NCBI RefSeq assembly: GCF_041886205.1
Contig: NZ_CP169029.1
Strand: one strand, 5' to 3'
Length of the DNA stretch: 64,000 nucleotides
From: Escherichia coli
GTDB taxonomy: Bacteria > Pseudomonadota > Gammaproteobacteria > Enterobacterales > Enterobacteriaceae
Shown here: positions 20,169 to 39,148 of the stretch, piece by piece
Layout of the letters: each line of letters opens with the position of its first letter
Position numbering within the stretch: the first letter of the stretch is position 1
Position numbers and translations under genes: made by a program
Notes under the pieces: model-generated
Databases searched by the model: none
Told to the model about the DNA's origin: nothing
Seen by the model: only the letters and a program-made list of their open reading frames with translations

Positions 20169-20190
20169 TAATGTGAGTTAGCTCACTCAT
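20169..20190. promoter_or_regulatory. CRP (CAP) binding site of the lac promoter
   Basis: TAATGTGAGTTAGCTCACTCAT. Confidence 0.9.
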
Positions 20191-31695: not shown

Positions 31696-33582
31696 TTACT
31701 CTTCCATCGCCTGACGGATCTGATCCAACGACGCCGGATCATCAATGGTCGTCAGATCCCCCGGATCGCGTCCTTCGCAAATCGCCTGGATTGTGCGGCG
31801 CAGCATTTTTCCGGATCGCGTTTTTGGCAATTGCGAGACAAACCAGACGTGCGCCGGGCGGCCAAAGTTGCCAATCTGGCTGTCCACCAGCGCCATAATC
31901 GCCTTCTCTTGCGAATGCGCCACCTCACGATCTTCCAGACTATCGCTCTCTTTCGGAATGACAAACGCCACTGCCACCTGCCCTTTCAGCGCATCTTTCA
32001 CCCCAACCACCGCCACTTCGGCAACGCCCGGATGACTGGAGATACTCTCTTCAATCTCGCGCGTCCCCAGCCGATGCCCGGCAACGTTAATTACATCGTC
32101 AGTGCGCCCGAGAATAAAGTGATAACCGTCAGCGTCACGGATGCCCCAGTCAAAGGTGGCGTACACCGGGCGGGAAAACAGCGACCAATACGTCTTCACA
32201 AAGCGGTCGTCGTCGCCCCAGATGGTCTGAATACAGCCCGGCGGCAATGGCCCTTCCACCACCAGCATCCCTTTCTCATTGACGCCGCACGGTTCGCCGG
32301 TGACTTCATTAAGCAACTGCACGTTATAGCCATACATCGGCACGCCGGGGCTTCCCAGACGCGTCGGCCTGTCGTCCAGACCGCGAGCAATCGCCATAAT
32401 CGGCCAGCCGGATTCGGTCTGCCAGTAGTTGTCGATGACCGGCACATCCAGCGTATTGCTCACCCAACTGGCGGTCGGCTCGTCCAGCGGTTCTCCAGCC
32501 AGATAGAGCACTTCCAGCGACGAGAGATCGTGTTTACGAATTTCAGCGGTAGGGAATTTTTTCAGCACGCGAATGGCAGTCGGCGCTGAGAACATCCGGC
32601 TCACCTGATATTTCTCGACGATTTTCCACCACACGCCGCAGTCCGGCCAGGTCGGTAATCCTTCGTAAACGATAGTCGCCATCCCCGCCAGCAGCGGCGC
32701 GTAGACGATATACGAATGCCCCACCACCCAGCCGATATCCGAAGCACAAAAGAACACACCGCCCGCTTTGCCGCCAAAAATGGTGTCCATCGAGGTCGCC
32801 AGCGCCACCGCATATCCGCCGACGTCACGCTGCACGCCTTTAGGTTTGCCGGTCGTGCCGGAGGTGTAGAGAATGCAGGAGGTTTCGTTGGATTCCAGCC
32901 ACGCCACCGGTACCCGCGCGCCGATGTGTTGATGGCGCAACGACGCGAAATCGACATCCCGCCCGCTGACGCGTGCCATTTTCGCCAGCCCGCGATCCAC
33001 CAGCAAAACATGGCGTGGCTGGTGCTGCGCCTGACTTATCGCATCGTCGAGCAATTTTTTATAGGGAATGATTTTGCCACCGCGCGCTCCGGCATCAGCC
33101 GAGACAATCAGCACCGGGTTAGCATCATCAATTCGCGCCGCCACGCTGTGCGAGGCAAATCCACCAAACACCACCGAGTGAATAGCGCCAATGCGCGCGC
33201 AGGCCAGCAGAGTAATATGCGCTTCGGCAATCATCGGCATATACACCAGCACCCGATCGCCACGCTGCACGCCCAGCGAGCGCAGCATTGACGCCACCGC
33301 ATTCACTTCGTCATGCAGCTGACGAAAGGTAAAGGTGCGCTCTTCTTCTGTTTCCGAAGAGACGGCAATCAGCGCCAGCGCCTCTGGCTGTTTCTCCAGC
33401 CAGCGGTCGATAGCGTTGTGACACAAGTTGGTTCGGCCTTCACAAAACCAACGGGCAAATGGCGGATTACTGTGGTCGAGCGTTTGCGTAAAGGGCGTCT
33501 GCCAGTCAATACGCCGGGCCTGCTCGGCCCAGAACTGCTCCGGTTCGTTAATCGAACGCTGATAAAATTCGCTAAAAGACAT
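31696..33582 (-). CDS. prpE: Propionyl-CoA synthetase
   Basis: 628 aa acyl-CoA synthetase; MSFSEFYQRSINEPEQFWAEQARRIDW; AMP-binding YTSGTTGKPKG. Confidence 0.95.
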   Translation of the reverse strand: MSFSEFYQRSINEPEQFWAEQARRIDWQTPFTQTLDHSNPPFARWFCEGRTNLCHNAIDRWLEKQPEALALIAVSSETEEERTFTFRQLHDEVNAVASMLRSLGVQRGDRVLVYMPMIAEAHITLLACARIGAIHSVVFGGFASHSVAARIDDANPVLIVSADAGARGGKIIPYKKLLDDAISQAQHQPRHVLLVDRGLAKMARVSGRDVDFASLRHQHIGARVPVAWLESNETSCILYTSGTTGKPKGVQRDVGGYAVALATSMDTIFGGKAGGVFFCASDIGWVVGHSYIVYAPLLAGMATIVYEGLPTWPDCGVWWKIVEKYQVSRMFSAPTAIRVLKKFPTAEIRKHDLSSLEVLYLAGEPLDEPTASWVSNTLDVPVIDNYWQTESGWPIMAIARGLDDRPTRLGSPGVPMYGYNVQLLNEVTGEPCGVNEKGMLVVEGPLPPGCIQTIWGDDDRFVKTYWSLFSRPVYATFDWGIRDADGYHFILGRTDDVINVAGHRLGTREIEESISSHPGVAEVAVVGVKDALKGQVAVAFVIPKESDSLEDREVAHSQEKAIMALVDSQIGNFGRPAHVWFVSQLPKTRSGKMLRRTIQAICEGRDPGDLTTIDDPASLDQIRQAMEE

Positions 33583-33621
33583 AATGCTCTCCTGTTGAAC
33601 TTACGCCTTACCGCTGTTTGC

Positions 33622-35073
33622 TTAAATGACGTACAGGTCGAGATACTCATTGACCGGCATCTGTTCCAGGCGAGTTCTGTCGAGAGAAACCTCCAGAATG
33701 CGCTGCTGTTGGCGAGTCGGGAACTGGCGCGCGAGATTGATTTTGAATTTATCGATCAGTTTCGGAATACCATCCTGACGGCGGCGAGCATGACCAATTG
33801 GGTACTCCACCACCACTTCTTCAAATCGTGTGCCGTCGGTGAACTCAAGGGTAATGGCATTGGCGATGGCGCGTTTTTCCGGGTCGTGGTAGTCAGCGGT
33901 AAATGCCGGATCTTCAAAGCAATTGATCTTCTCGCGCAGGGCGTCAATGCGTTTATCTTGCGCAACGTTGTCCTCGTAATCTGCCGCCGTTAAGCGCCCG
34001 AATAACAGCGGGATCGCCACCATGTACTGAATGCAGTGGTCGCGGTCTGCCGGGTTATTGAGCGGCCCTTTTTTGTCGATGATGCGAATACAGGCTTCGT
34101 GGGTGCGAATGGTCACTTTTTCGATATCTGCCGCCGTTTTGCCTGCGGCCTGCATCTGTTCATAGAGCGTCATCGCCGCTTCAACTGCCGTCTGGGAGTG
34201 GAACTCCGCCGGGAAGGAGATTTTGAACAGCACATTCTCCATGACGTAAGAACCGTACGGGCGCTGGAAGCGGAACGATTCACCTTTGAAGGAGACGTCG
34301 TAGAAGCCCCACACCGGCGCAGTCAGGGCTGACGGGTAACCCATTTCACCCGTTTTCGCCATCAGTGCCAGACGTACCGCGCGGGAAGTGGCATCGCCCG
34401 CCGCCCAGGATTTACGCGTGCCGGTGTTCGGCGCATGGCGATAGGTACGCAGCGACTGACCGTCCACCCACGCCAGCGAAACAGCGTTGAGAATTTCCTC
34501 GCGGGTCAGGCCGAGCATTTCGGCGACCACGGCGGTGGAAGCCACTTTCACTAACAGAACGTGGTCGAGGCCGACGCGGTTAAAGGAGTTTTCCAGCGCG
34601 ATGCAGCCCTGAATTTCATGGGCTTTGATCATTGCGGTCAGCACCTGTTTCATGGTCAACGGCGCTTTGCCGCTGGCGACCGCATTGCGCGAAAGCCAGT
34701 CCGCCGTTGCCAGAATGCCGCCGAGGTTGTCGGAAGGATGGCCCCACTCCGCCGCCAGCCAGGTATCGTTGAAATCGAGCCAGCGGATCATCGCGCCAAT
34801 GTTAAATGCCGCCTGGACGGGGTCGAGCTGGAACTGAGTTCCGGGGACGCGCACGCCGTTAGGTACGACGGTGCCAGGAACAATTGGCCCCAGCAGTTTT
34901 TTACAGGCCGGGTATTCAAGAGCTTCAAGACCGCAGCCGAGAGTGTCGAGCAGGCAGTAATGTGCGGTGTCGTAGGCTACTTTGGAGCTAATTTCGTAGT
35001 TCATCACGTAATCGACGATATCAACGATTTCACGATCAAATTCCGGGCGGATGTTGTTGATTTGAGCTGACAT
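33622..35073 (-). CDS. prpD: 2-methylcitrate dehydratase
   Basis: 483 aa MmgE/PrpD family; [23 protein letters not shown]. Confidence 0.95.
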
Positions 35074-35106
35074 TGGGTACGTTTCCTTATTGTTATTCGT
35101 AGAGGT

Positions 35107-36276
35107 TTACTGGCGCTTATCCAGCGCGACAAACGGGCGGTCTTCCGGTCCAACATAATTGGCGGAAGGACGGATAATTTTGTTGTCCTGACGTTGTTCG
35201 ATAATGTGCGCCGCCCAGCCGGTGACGCGGGCGATAACAAACAGTGGTGTGAACATCTCGGTGGGAACGCCCATCATGTTGTAGGAAACGGCGGAGAACC
35301 AGTCGAGATTGGGGAACATTTTTTTGCTCTCCCACATCACTGTTTCCAGGCGATCGGCGATGTTGTACATCTTCAGCGAGCCGCCGTCCTGCGAGAGCTG
35401 CTTCGCCACGCGTTTGATCACCTGATGACGCGGGTCGGCGATGGTGTAAACCGGATGACCAAAACCAATGACCACTTCTTTGTTTTCCACGCGCTTGCGG
35501 ATATCGGCTTCGGCTTCGTCCGGCGTTTCGTAGCGTTGCTGGATCTCCAGCGACACTTCATTCGCCCCGCCGTGTTTCGGCCCGCGCAGTGCGCCAATCG
35601 CGCCAATAATCGCGGAATACATATCAGAGCCAGTGCCCGCAATCACCCGGCTGGTAAAGGTGGAAGCGTTAAACTCGTGTTCGGCGTACAGCACCAGCGA
35701 AATATGCATCGCCTTTTCCCAGCTTTGCGATGGCTTTTCGCCATGCAGCAGATGCAGGAAGTGACCTCCGATGGAGTCGTCATCGGTTTCCGGCTGGATG
35801 CGTTCGCCGTTGTGGCTGTAGTGATACCAGTAGAGAAGAATCGAGCTAAGTGACGCCAGCAGTTTGTCGGCAATATCCCGCGCGCCAGAGACAGTATGCC
35901 CCTCTTTTTCCGGCAGCGTGCAGCCGAGCGCGGAAACGCCGGTGCGCATAACATCCATCGGGTGCGACGCCGCGGGTAAGGCTTCCAGCACGGTACGCAC
36001 GTTAGCCGGTAAACCGCGCAGGGCTTTCAGTTTTGTTTTGTAAGCGGCGAGTTCGTCACGGGTCGGCAGTTTGCCGTGGATCAGCAGATGCGCCACTTCT
36101 TCAAATTCGCAATGTTCCGCGAGGTCAAGAATATCGTAGCCGCGGTAATGCAGGTCATTGCCGCTTTTACCCACGGTGCAGAGCGCCGTATTGCCCGCCG
36201 GAACGCCGGAAAGTGCTACCGATTTTTTCGGTTTAATGACATGGGTACTGTTTTGCAGGATCGTTGTGTCGCTCAT
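35107..36276 (-). CDS. prpC: 2-methylcitrate synthase
   Basis: 389 aa from [30 protein letters not shown]; citrate synthase family; ORF open upstream to 36402. Confidence 0.93.
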
Positions 36277-36318
36277 GTTGTCCTCGTCATTGTTATCATT
36301 TGTAGGGTCGAGATTGTT

Positions 36319-36412
36319 GTCGGATGCGACGCTATGCGTCTTATCCGACAGTTCAGTGCATCCCGTAGGCCTGATAAGTCGCGTCAGCGGCGCATCAGGC
36401 ATCGGTTGTCAA
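36319..36412. repeat. REP cluster between prpC and prpB
   Basis: GTCGGATGCGACGCTATGCGTCTTATCCGACA ... GTAGGCCTGATAAGTCGCGTCAGCGGCGCATCAGGCAT. Confidence 0.8.
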
Positions 36413-36432
36413 ATACAACCAACGGGCGTTTT

Positions 36433-37323
36433 TTATTTCGCCTGGTTACGGGCAAACAGGTCGTCGAGCTTCTCTTCGTACTGGTAATAGTTGATGCTTT
36501 CGTACAGCTCGTTGCGGGTTTGCATGGTGTCGATGACGCTTTTCTGCGTGCCTTCCTGACGCAGGACGTTGTAGACATGTTCAGCGGCGCGGTTCATGGC
36601 GCGGAACGCTGAAAGCGGGTACAGCGCCATTGCGACATGGGCGCTGCGTAATTCGTCGGTGGTAAACAGCGGTGTTGCGCCAAATTCGGTAATGTTGGCG
36701 AGGATTGGCACCTGCACCGCATCGGCAAACTGGCGGTACATGGCGAGTTCGGTAATCGCCTCCGGGAACAACATCTCGGCACCCGCTTCAACATAGGCCT
36801 GCGCACGCTCGATCGCCGCATCCAGCCCCTCTACCGCCAGCGCATCGGTGCGCGCCATGATCACAAAATCAGGATCGGTTTTCGCATCCACCGCCGCGCG
36901 GATCCGATCCACCATCTCTTCTTTCGAGACGATCGCTTTATTCGGACGATGACCGCAGCGTTTCGCACCAACCTGATCTTCAATATGCAATCCTGCCGCA
37001 CCGGCTTTAATCATCGATTTCACCGTACGCGCCACGTTAAAGGCCGAAGAACCAAAACCGATATCCGCATCCACCAGCAGCGGCAGCGAACAAACGTCGG
37101 TGATACGGCGAATATCGGTCAGCACGTCATCAAGGGTAGAAATACCGAGATCCGGCAGCCCCAGCGAACCTGCCGCCACGCCACCGCCGGAAAGATAAAT
37201 TGCCTGATATCCGGCACGCTGCGCCAACAGCGCATGATTAGCGTTGATGGTGCCAACAATCTGCAATGGATTTTCTTTAGACAGTGCAGCGCGAAACGCT
37301 TTACCTGGAGAGTGTAGAGACAT
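36433..37323 (-). CDS. prpB: 2-methylisocitrate lyase
   Basis: 296 aa ICL/PEP-mutase family; [34 protein letters not shown]. Confidence 0.95.
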
Positions 37324-37368
37324 AGCCCATCCTTTGTTATCAACTTGTTATTTTCGTTGATAAAGACA

Positions 37369-37386
37369 AAGCAAGGGGTGTGCCAC
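37369..37386 (-). promoter_or_regulatory. Sigma-54 (-24/-12) promoter of prpBCDE
   Basis: Minus strand reads TGGCACACCCCTTGC, matching TGGCAC-N5-TTGC, about 50 bp upstream of prpB. Confidence 0.8.
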
Positions 37387-37460
37387 AATTGCCTTATTAG
37401 AATTAAATGTTTAATTTCAATTTGTTATAAATAAAGTCATGAAGTAATCTGCAAATATGC

Positions 37461-37518
37461 GTTTCAGTTAACGTTTCAGGCAATGTTTCACCGCGTTTCA
37501 TTGCAACAATTATGAAAC
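37461..37518. promoter_or_regulatory. GTTTCA repeat array with inverted TGAAAC (candidate PrpR enhancer sites)
   Basis: Four GTTTCA copies at 37461, 37473, 37485 and 37495 plus TGAAAC at 37513, 90-140 bp upstream of the sigma-54 promoter. Confidence 0.45.
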
Positions 37519-37561
37519 AAGACTAAACCCAATATTCGGTTTCTTAACTTTGCGGTGCGCT

Positions 37562-39148
37562 ATGGCACATCCACCACGGCTTAATGACGACAAACCGGTT
37601 ATCTGGACGGTATCTGTAACGCGCCTGTTCGAGCTGTTTCGCGATATCAGCCTCGAGTTTGATCACCTGGCGAACATTACCCCTATCCAGCTTGGCTTTG
37701 AAAAAGCAGTGACCTATATCCGCAAGAAACTGGCAAACGAACGGTGCGACGCCATCATCGCCGCTGGATCTAACGGCGCGTACCTGAAAAGCCGCCTGTC
37801 AGTGCCAGTTATTTTGATTAAACCGAGCGGCTACGATGTGTTACAGGCACTGGCAAAAGCCGGAAAACTCACCTCTTCTATCGGCGTTGTCACCTATCAG
37901 GAAACCATTCCAGCGCTGGTGGCGTTTCAAAAAACCTTTAATCTGCGCCTCGATCAACGTAGCTACATTACCGAAGAAGACGCGCGCGGGCAGATTAACG
38001 AGCTGAAAGCTAACGGCACTGAAGCGGTGGTCGGCGCGGGGCTGATTACCGATCTGGCAGAAGAAGCCGGAATGACCGGAATTTTTATCTATTCCGCCGC
38101 CACCGTGCGCCAGGCGTTCAGCGATGCGCTGGATATGACGCGCATGTCGTTACGCCATAACACTCACGATGCCACCCGCAACGCCCTGAGAACTCGTTAC
38201 GTGCTGGGCGATATGCTCGGTCAATCACCACAGATGGAACAAGTACGGCAGACTATTTTGCTGTATGCCCGCTCCAGTGCAGCGGTGTTGATTGAGGGGG
38301 AAACGGGGACGGGCAAAGAGCTGGCGGCCCAGGCGATTCATCGGGAATATTTTGCCCGCCACGATGCGCGACAGGGCAAAAAGTCGCATCCGTTTGTTGC
38401 CGTCAACTGCGGGGCGATAGCCGAATCGCTGCTGGAAGCGGAGCTGTTTGGCTATGAGGAAGGGGCGTTTACCGGCTCGCGACGCGGAGGTCGCGCCGGG
38501 CTGTTCGAAATTGCCCACGGCGGTACGCTGTTTCTGGATGAGATTGGCGAAATGCCGCTACCTTTGCAGACTCGCCTGTTACGGGTGCTGGAAGAAAAAG
38601 AGGTCACCCGCGTCGGCGGGCATCAGCCTGTTCCGGTAGATGTACGGGTCATTAGCGCCACTCACTGCAATCTGGAAGAAGATATGCAGCAAGGACGTTT
38701 TCGCCGTGATCTGTTTTATCGGCTGAGTATTTTGCGTCTGCAATTGCCACCACTGCGCGAGCGGGTGGCGGATATTCTTCCGCTGGCGGAAAGCTTTTTG
38801 AAAGTGTCTCTGGCGGCGCTCTCCGCCCCGTTTTCTGCCGCATTACGCCAGGGATTACAGGCAAGCGAAACCGTGCTGGTGCACTACGACTGGCCAGGTA
38901 ATATTCGTGAACTGCGCAATATGATGGAGCGACTGGCGCTATTTTTAAGTGTGGAACCGACGCCGGATTTAACGCCGCAATTTTTGCAGCTGCTACTGCC
39001 GGAACTGGCGCGCGAGTCGGCGAAAACTCCCGCTCCACGCTTACTGACACCACAACAGGCACTGGAGAAATTTAATGGCGATAAAACAGCAGCGGCGAAT
39101 TATTTAGGCATCAGCCGGACGACGTTCTGGCGGCGGCTGAAAAGCTGA
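37562..39148 (+). CDS. prpR: Sigma-54-dependent activator of the prp operon
   Basis: 528 aa from [22 protein letters not shown]+ sigma-54 interaction domain ([13 protein letters not shown]); divergent from prpB. Confidence 0.93.

Follow-up and report, generated by a model that had tools for sequence, protein, structure and literature searches.

Bacterial enhancer-binding proteins (bEBPs) activate σ54 promoters from a well-established upstream layout: NtrC at glnAp2, NorR at norV and PspF at pspA each use multiple short sites located ~100-150 bp upstream of the -24/-12 element, with the activator gene divergent or adjacent and with an AT-rich or IHF-bent spacer. The prpBCDE promoter and its PrpR enhancer underlie the widely used pPro propionate-inducible vectors as well as propionate biosensors. 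For the Salmonella enhancer, the abstract of the 2004 study by Palacios and Escalante-Semerena reportedly describes two sites with dyad symmetry.

The closest described system is the prpR-prpBCDE locus of Salmonella enterica LT2 (Horswill 1997; Palacios & Escalante-Semerena 2000, 2004), which has the same divergent gene order as the locus analysed here and an orthologous PrpR. In Salmonella, σ54 dependence has been demonstrated by experiment for four operons, among them prpBCDE, whose expression was 45-fold higher in the wild type than in an rpoN deletion when a promiscuous activator was supplied, and the σ54 ChIP-chip site of prpB is TGGCATAGCCTTTGCTTT (PMC3844500). Reviews describe a system that depends on prpR, rpoN and ihf, with 2-methylcitrate as co-activator; in this account PrpR, bound to an enhancer-like element, reaches the polymerase by looping (PMC4987338, PMC5566544). 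Table 1 of PMC4987338, a list of bEBP enhancer consensus sequences, gives CGTTTCATGAAACG for Salmonella PrpR, citing Palacios & Escalante-Semerena 2004, and the same review relays from that work that PrpR binding and its necessity for 2-methylcitrate-dependent activation were shown in Salmonella. The consensus is a perfect palindrome of the GTTTCA/TGAAAC hexamer. In E. coli hosts the Salmonella prp system is ~3-fold stronger than that of E. coli (PMC5566544).

For E. coli K-12, σ54 ChIP-seq by Bonocora et al. (2015) identified, as first intergenic site OS01, the motif GTGGCACACCCCTTGCT upstream of prpB with a FAT of 17 (PMC4591121, Table 1), and genomic SELEX with reconstituted RpoN holoenzyme yielded a peak in the prpR/prpB spacer (PMC8743547). 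In 2015 EcoCyc listed the prpB promoter as predicted and not experimentally confirmed (footnote in PMC4591121), and in the accessible literature we found neither a direct PrpR footprint nor an experimentally mapped prpB transcript start for E. coli. The σ54 promoter and the PrpR enhancer of prpBCDE are already known (EcoCyc prpBp, OS01, pPro vectors): σ54 occupancy in K-12, the dependence on prpR, rpoN and ihf together with the enhancer consensus in Salmonella, and the 2-methylcitrate signal have all been shown by others. The sole addition made here is a map of ancient versus Escherichia-specific half-sites, together with a suggested turnover of the proximal site.

The prp locus and its σ54 promoter

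The window, i.e. the whole stretch of 64,000 nt that was analysed, carries the prp locus of E. coli. The 1.1 kb around the prpR/prpB spacer are 100% identical to an E. coli chromosome and were found in 5,223 of 5,426 complete E. coli genomes. According to the RefSeq annotation of the identical genome, prpR is divergent from prpB-prpC-prpD-prpE, which are followed by codBA. Genes and promoter elements are located as follows.

31696..37323, minus strand: prpBCDE operon (RefSeq genes of the identical genome, positions converted to those of the window)
31696-33582, minus strand: prpE (RefSeq)
33622-35073, minus strand: prpD (RefSeq)
35107-36276, minus strand: prpC (RefSeq)
36433-37323, minus strand: prpB, ATG at 37323 (RefSeq; Pfam)
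37359, minus strand: predicted prpB transcript start, giving a 36-nt leader (rule of Bonocora et al.)
37386..37370, minus strand: prpBp, gTGGCACACCCCTTGCt, with GG at -24 and GC at -12 (sequence match, identity to the K-12 ChIP-seq site, conservation)
37562..39148, plus strand: prpR, σ54 enhancer-binding activator of 528 aa (RefSeq, Pfam)

Pfam assigned PrpB to the PEP_mutase/isocitrate-lyase (ICL) family and resolved PrpR into PrpR_N (8e-52), Sigma54_activat (1e-65), an AAA lid and HTH_8 (9e-11), so that the σ54 promoter has a cognate AAA+ activator in the divergent prpR gene.

The core of the promoter, TGGCACACCCCTTGC (37385..37371, minus strand), is the sole TGGCAC-N5-TTGC on either strand of the window, against 0.30 expected. 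Since 27 of 100 shuffled sequences contained at least one such match, it is the position and not the count that gives the match its significance. The slightly longer TGGCACACCCCTTGCT (37385..37370, minus strand) has no mismatch to the σ54 core, with the GG and GC doublets exactly 10 bp apart, and the 3' end of the promoter (37371) lies 47 nt upstream of the prpB ATG (37323). A preliminary description of this DNA had proposed a -24/-12 match on the minus strand about 50 bp from prpB, and both the element and its distance were borne out. The transcript start was predicted by the rule of Bonocora et al., which places it 19 bp downstream of the motif centre and lists a distance to prpB of 36 (PMC4591121).

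The window promoter is identical, base for base, to the K-12 17-mer, as is the whole hexamer array described below (K-12 prpBp; EcoCyc, OS01), and the few substitutions that separate the window from K-12 lie in the AT-rich spacer and the leader (alignment A2). Among five diverse E. coli strains the promoter is invariant (A2), and TGGCAy-N5-TTGCTTT is kept in Escherichia, Salmonella, Citrobacter and Kluyvera with the consensus TGGCAyNCCyTTGCTTT (alignments A1 and A3). At the aligned position Salmonella has TGGCATAGCCTTTGC where E. coli has TGGCACACCCCTTGC.

Two side observations concern the strain and its activator gene. When window positions 36900-38000 were compared with 5,225 E. coli records, 2 were at least 99% identical, 5,041 fell between 95 and 99% and 182 between 90 and 95%, the best match being a strain isolated from an Asian black bear. 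As only 2 of the 5,225 records reach 99%, the window represents an uncommon E. coli lineage, at least at the prp locus. Among database entries for E. coli PrpR, many have a length of 423-457 aa and lack the AAA lid and HTH_8 (e.g. P0099, or P0103 on 23 contigs), and in strain GN05064 prpR is annotated as a pseudogene with an internal stop next to an intact enhancer and promoter. Loss-of-function prpR alleles may be common in E. coli; some of the short entries may simply be truncated at contig ends.

The GTTTCA/TGAAAC array and its association with prpR

Reading the minus strand of 37150-37750 gives the prpB ATG at 37323, the promoter, the upstream string cttGTTTCAtaattgttgcaaTGAAACgcggTGAAACattgccTGAAACgttaacTGAAACgc and the rightward ATG at 37562. 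GTTTCA occurs on the plus strand at 37461, 37473, 37485 and 37495 and on the minus strand at 37518..37513, so that five copies lie within 58 bp (37461-37518), 90-147 bp upstream of the -12 GC and at -102 to -159 relative to the predicted start. Across the window the hexamer is not in excess (36 copies, 35.7 expected), but its clustering is far beyond chance: 300 Markov-1 simulated 64-kb sequences contained at most 3 copies per 60 bp, a number reached in 4 of the 300, compared with the 5 observed, and a Poisson estimate gave ~1.5e-5 five-copy clusters per window. Apart from the array at 37461-37518, nowhere in the window do 3 or more hexamers fall within 80 bp.

We then asked how the hexamer is distributed over other PrpR loci. 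A PrpR scan with one genome per species yielded full-length orthologue loci from E. albertii, Citrobacter, Photorhabdus, several Oxalobacteraceae, a Burkholderiaceae MAG and Xanthomonas, to which loci of Kluyvera, C. koseri, C. amalonaticus and Salmonella were added. For Salmonella, metagenome contigs were searched with the LT2 promoter 18-mer known from the literature, and three of the loci screened (L090-L169) were prp loci; one of them, L094, was identified by an exact match of its PrpR to NCBI S. enterica entries. In a 6-mer test without any assumed motif, strand-collapsed counts in the 200 bp upstream of prpR were compared with the rest of the loci for 17 loci. GTTTCA/TGAAAC ranked first with 56 copies against 1.26 expected, a 44-fold enrichment, and occurred at least twice in 15 of the 17 loci; the runners-up, GAAACA, CGTTTC and ATGAAA, are shifted versions of it. 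In 19 loci (117 kb), clusters with 3 or more hexamers in 80 bp numbered 14, 13 of them within 300 bp upstream of prpR and the remaining one (L009:218-243) ~145 bp upstream of another TGGCAy-N5-TTGC. All 14 adjoin prpR-linked promoter regions, an association without exception in this set.

The beta-proteobacterial orthologues, with ~60% identity, follow the same logic in a different syntax. Locus L012 carries GTTTCAcGTTTCAatgTGAAACgaatTGAAACtaagTGAAACaaataTGAAAC and, 53 bp later, ttggcacgctgcttgca and a prpB homologue, with 2+4 hexamer copies at ~10 bp spacing; L015 has 2+3 copies, and L007, L009 and L011 contain GTTTCA-N3-TGAAAC. Its enrichment and clustering upstream of prpR provide strong evidence that the hexamer is the recognition half-site of the PrpR family and the cluster the enhancer of the adjacent σ54 promoter. 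In an alignment of the C-terminal 62 residues of 18 PrpR homologues, the recognition helix ISRTTLWRR was near-invariant, even in homologues lacking arrays, and is therefore uninformative about which homologues have them.

The repeats had been described beforehand as four direct GTTTCA copies and one inverted TGAAAC, 90-140 bp further upstream, and as an enhancer for the divergently encoded PrpR. Copy number, orientation and distance agree with the exact positions given above, and the enhancer assignment gains support from the Salmonella consensus, built from the same hexamer, and from the co-occurrence of hexamer and PrpR locus. We therefore favour, with a probability of about 0.92, the reading that this DNA natively controls the propionate (2-methylcitrate cycle) operon of E. 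coli by the standard bEBP mechanism. σ54 RNA polymerase would be pre-bound as a closed complex on TGGCAC-N5-TTGC (37385..37371), and PrpR from the divergent gene would bind the GTTTCA/TGAAAC half-sites, which span ~60 bp centred ~130 bp upstream of the predicted start, via its C-terminal Fis-type helix-turn-helix, presumably contacting all five hexamers. 2-Methylcitrate, made from propionate via PrpE and PrpC, would lift the inhibition by the N-terminal PrpR_N domain, upon which the AAA+ domains would assemble and ATP hydrolysis would follow. Looping of the AT-rich spacer, probably bent by IHF, would then bring PrpR onto the polymerase, leading to promoter opening and transcription of prpBCDE.

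Some of the loci show further features. Loci of PrpR homologues without an array hold the one-base variant GTTGCA/TGCAAC within 250 bp, with 4 copies in L010 (2380-2470) and 3 in L017 (upstream of 764). The PrpR site of Xanthomonas citri, likened here by protein name, is GTTGCAA-N2-TTGCAAC as determined by EMSA (PMC12153269), and GTTGCAA is also present in the invariant spacer of the distal dyad of E. coli and Salmonella (window 37501-37506). The variant may reflect a specificity switch within the PrpR family or a second recognition element. In Massilia glaciei (L009, 75-243 and 2404-2426), and also in L007, there are two separate hexamer clusters. The Massilia cluster directly upstream of prpR faces a gene starting with MHDDMVQKIKSDPNYRKL and has no clear -24/-12 match, and the other, 2.2 kb away, is the one ~145 bp upstream of TGGCAy-N5-TTGC, which suggests that PrpR controls two transcription units in Massilia.

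Anatomy of the enhancer in E. coli and its relatives

Aligning the enhancer with those of other Enterobacteriaceae resolved it into a distal dyad, termed site A, and three further hexamers, given here in the prpB sense.

37461..37466, minus strand: h5, TGAAAC, -102 to -107 (Escherichia-specific; TGACAC in other genera)
37473..37478, minus strand: h4, TGAAACG, -114 to -119 (kept in all Enterobacteriaceae aligned, A3)
37485..37490, minus strand: h3, TGAAAC, -126 to -131 (E. coli only; A1, A2 and A3)
37495..37518, minus strand: site A, GTTTCA-taattgttgcaa-TGAAAC, -136 to -159 (invariant columns in A1 and A3)

As seen by phylogenetic footprinting in Enterobacteriaceae, the hexamers and the -24/-12 element are conserved, while the spacer in between varies. 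Site A, only 44 bp away from the start codon of prpR, consists of h1 (37513-37518) and h2 (37495-37500); across genera its two halves are invariant, as is most of the 12-bp spacer between them (GTTTCA-taawtgttgcaa-TGAAAC, including TTGCAA). Salmonella shares this dyad as GTTTCA-N12-TGAAAC with a nearly identical spacer, as well as the proximal half TGAAACG, and the E. coli segment 37461-37518 as a whole aligns opposite the two Salmonella dyads (A3). h4 aligns with the right half of the palindrome CGTTTCATGAAACG in Salmonella, Citrobacter and C. koseri, whereas the left half reads ATTGCC in Escherichia. The full palindrome was not found in the window, where no copy has fewer than 2 mismatches and the best match within the enhancer has 3. 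Salmonella continues from its perfect proximal palindrome to TGACAC, whereas E. coli combines the ATTGCC left half with two extra direct TGAAAC copies, h3 and h5, 12 bp on either side of h4. The position of h5 reads TGACAC, one substitution from TGAAAC, in Salmonella, Citrobacter and Kluyvera, and that of h3 reads TGAAAT in E. albertii and TGATTC in Salmonella. In total, three of the five hexamers (h1, h2 and h4) are conserved across genera.

Within E. coli the picture is uniform. All five hexamers are invariant in five diverse strains including K-12, O157:H7 and the lineage of the window, with the substitutions among them sitting in the AT-rich spacer and the leader (A2). Every one of the 5,220 E. 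coli records containing the 101-bp enhancer matches it at 95% identity or more. From the alignments, the arrangement of four direct copies and one inverted copy appears as a lineage-specific one layered on an older two-dyad design. Compared with the sites of NtrC, NorR and PspF, the recognition sequence differs, and in E. coli the PrpR region combines a single dyad with direct repeats instead of consisting of dyads alone.

Since h3 and h5 lack conservation beyond Escherichia, possibly not every one of the five hexamers of E. coli is functional. A conceivable though rather improbable refinement is that the enhancer comprises just the conserved subset, dyad A (h1 and h2) plus h4, that h3 and h5 are incidental, near-neutral changes, and that the "four direct repeats" are in part a coincidence of pattern. 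Reaching h3 or h5 from the sequences of other genera takes one or two point mutations each, and Salmonella and Citrobacter function with four hexamers arranged in two dyads. However, h3 and h5 lie exactly 12 bp to either side of h4, roughly on one helical face, they appear in a lineage that lacks the left proximal half, which looks compensatory, and both are invariant in the five E. coli strains. In addition, direct arrays with 10-12 bp spacing arose independently in the beta-proteobacterial loci L011, L012 and L015.

The comparison allows a tentative evolutionary suggestion, which we consider possible but doubtful: in Escherichia the proximal dyad CGTTTCATGAAACG, present in Salmonella, Citrobacter and Photorhabdus, may have been taken apart and given way to direct TGAAAC half-sites arrayed in helical phase at 10-12 bp spacing. 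Direct arrays of this kind have an independent origin in Oxalobacteraceae. If the suggestion is true, the turnover from dyad to array would change how the activator ring nucleates on DNA, and the turnover of the proximal half-site might bear on the 3-fold gap in strength reported for the two systems (PMC5566544), explaining why PprpB of E. coli is ~3-fold weaker and less leaky than the Salmonella promoter. The two regions also differ in the prpB leader and in the distance from enhancer to promoter, which is 75 bp in E. coli and 112 bp, i.e. 37 bp longer, in Salmonella. The base-resolution map of ancient (h1, h2, h4) versus Escherichia-specific (h3, h5) hexamers could guide the tuning of PprpB sensors and offers a small, testable example of half-site turnover in the enhancer of a bEBP.

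Other regulators, spacer and prpB leader

The array might alternatively be mainly a target of ArcA or CRP, controlling prpR and prpB by redox or carbon state. ArcA binds direct repeats ~11 bp apart, and it was considered here because of the 10-12 bp spacing of the hexamers. Park et al. (2013) predicted an ArcA site upstream of prpR by PWM (at least 15 bits) and found prpR expression changed in an arcA mutant, but the ArcA ChIP signal was absent at prpR (PMC3798270). For CRP, a site overlapping the PrpR operator has been reported (Lee et al., cited second-hand), E. coli is described, likewise second-hand, as losing PrpR regulation when the overlapping CRP/PrpR operator is mutated, and PMC3105977 lists one CRP site in the prpR-prpBCDE spacer. 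A search for TGTGA-N6-TCACA with up to 3 mismatches found no match within 37386-37553, and thus none in the enhancer; the nearest match to the CRP consensus is at 37554-37569, straddling the prpR start codon. Moreover, the hexamer clusters follow PrpR into loci of Oxalobacteraceae and Burkholderiaceae, where they lie upstream of -24/-12 elements, and the published PrpR consensus is built from the same hexamer (PMC4987338). The occurrence of the hexamer with PrpR beyond the enterics excludes ArcA as the primary explanation, and together with the missing ChIP signal it led us to reject ArcA as the main reading of the array. We thus regard control mainly by ArcA or CRP as highly improbable; overlapping secondary sites for either protein are possible. 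A chance origin of the -24/-12 match and the hexamer cluster in AT-rich intergenic DNA, without any regulatory role, as the 27 of 100 shuffles with a promoter match and the lack of window-wide hexamer enrichment might suggest, is already refuted by clustering far beyond simulation, by conservation across genera and classes, and by experimental σ54 occupancy.

The spacer between enhancer and promoter is AT-rich and unalignable between genera, measuring 75 bp in Escherichia and 98-112 bp elsewhere. It contains the following candidate.

37401..37427, no strand assigned: AT-rich spacer with candidate IHF bending site, about -42 to -68 (three overlapping WATCAANNNNTTR matches with 1 mismatch each)

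In 13 orthologous spacers we counted 14 IHF-like matches, compared with 2.9 expected from shuffles, distributed over 9 of the 13 loci, among which E. coli and E. albertii are not independent; the two shortest spacers, those of L011 and L012, hold perfect matches. The Salmonella spacer has no IHF match with up to 1 mismatch, and ihf is genetically required in Salmonella (Palacios 2000, as relayed by reviews including PMC4987338 and PMC5566544). Given this absence the assignment in E. coli is weak, and we consider an IHF site at 37401-37427 likely but unproven.

On the other side of the enhancer, a consensus scan of 37300-37620 found no σ70 promoter for prpR. By eye, a weak candidate consists of TTGCAA (37501-37506) and TAAACC (37524-37529), separated by a 17-bp gap and both in conserved columns. 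The short distance of 44 bp between site A and the prpR ATG means that the promoter of prpR must overlap the enhancer, and from this overlap autoregulation of prpR is plausible.

The prpB leader (window 37327-37361, minus strand) contains tATCAACgaaaataacaaGTTGATaacaa, which is invariant in Escherichia, Citrobacter and Kluyvera while its flanks vary (A1), and which is not conserved in Salmonella (A3). At the predicted mRNA 5' end it folds into a hairpin of 7 bp (-7.5 kcal/mol, z = -2.4), and its reverse complement, TATCAACTTGTTA (37338-37350, plus strand), is a perfect IHF consensus. An Rfam scan of 37200-37700 returned only two eukaryotic families far below threshold. The element could act as a stabilising 5' stem-loop, as a downstream IHF site or as a site for another regulator.

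Elsewhere in the window, the best match to the CRP consensus, with 1 mismatch, is TGTGAGTTAGCTCACT at 20172-20187, which looks like the CRP site of the lac promoter. The order lac - cod - prp, which we take to be that of the K-12 map, is consistent with this assignment.
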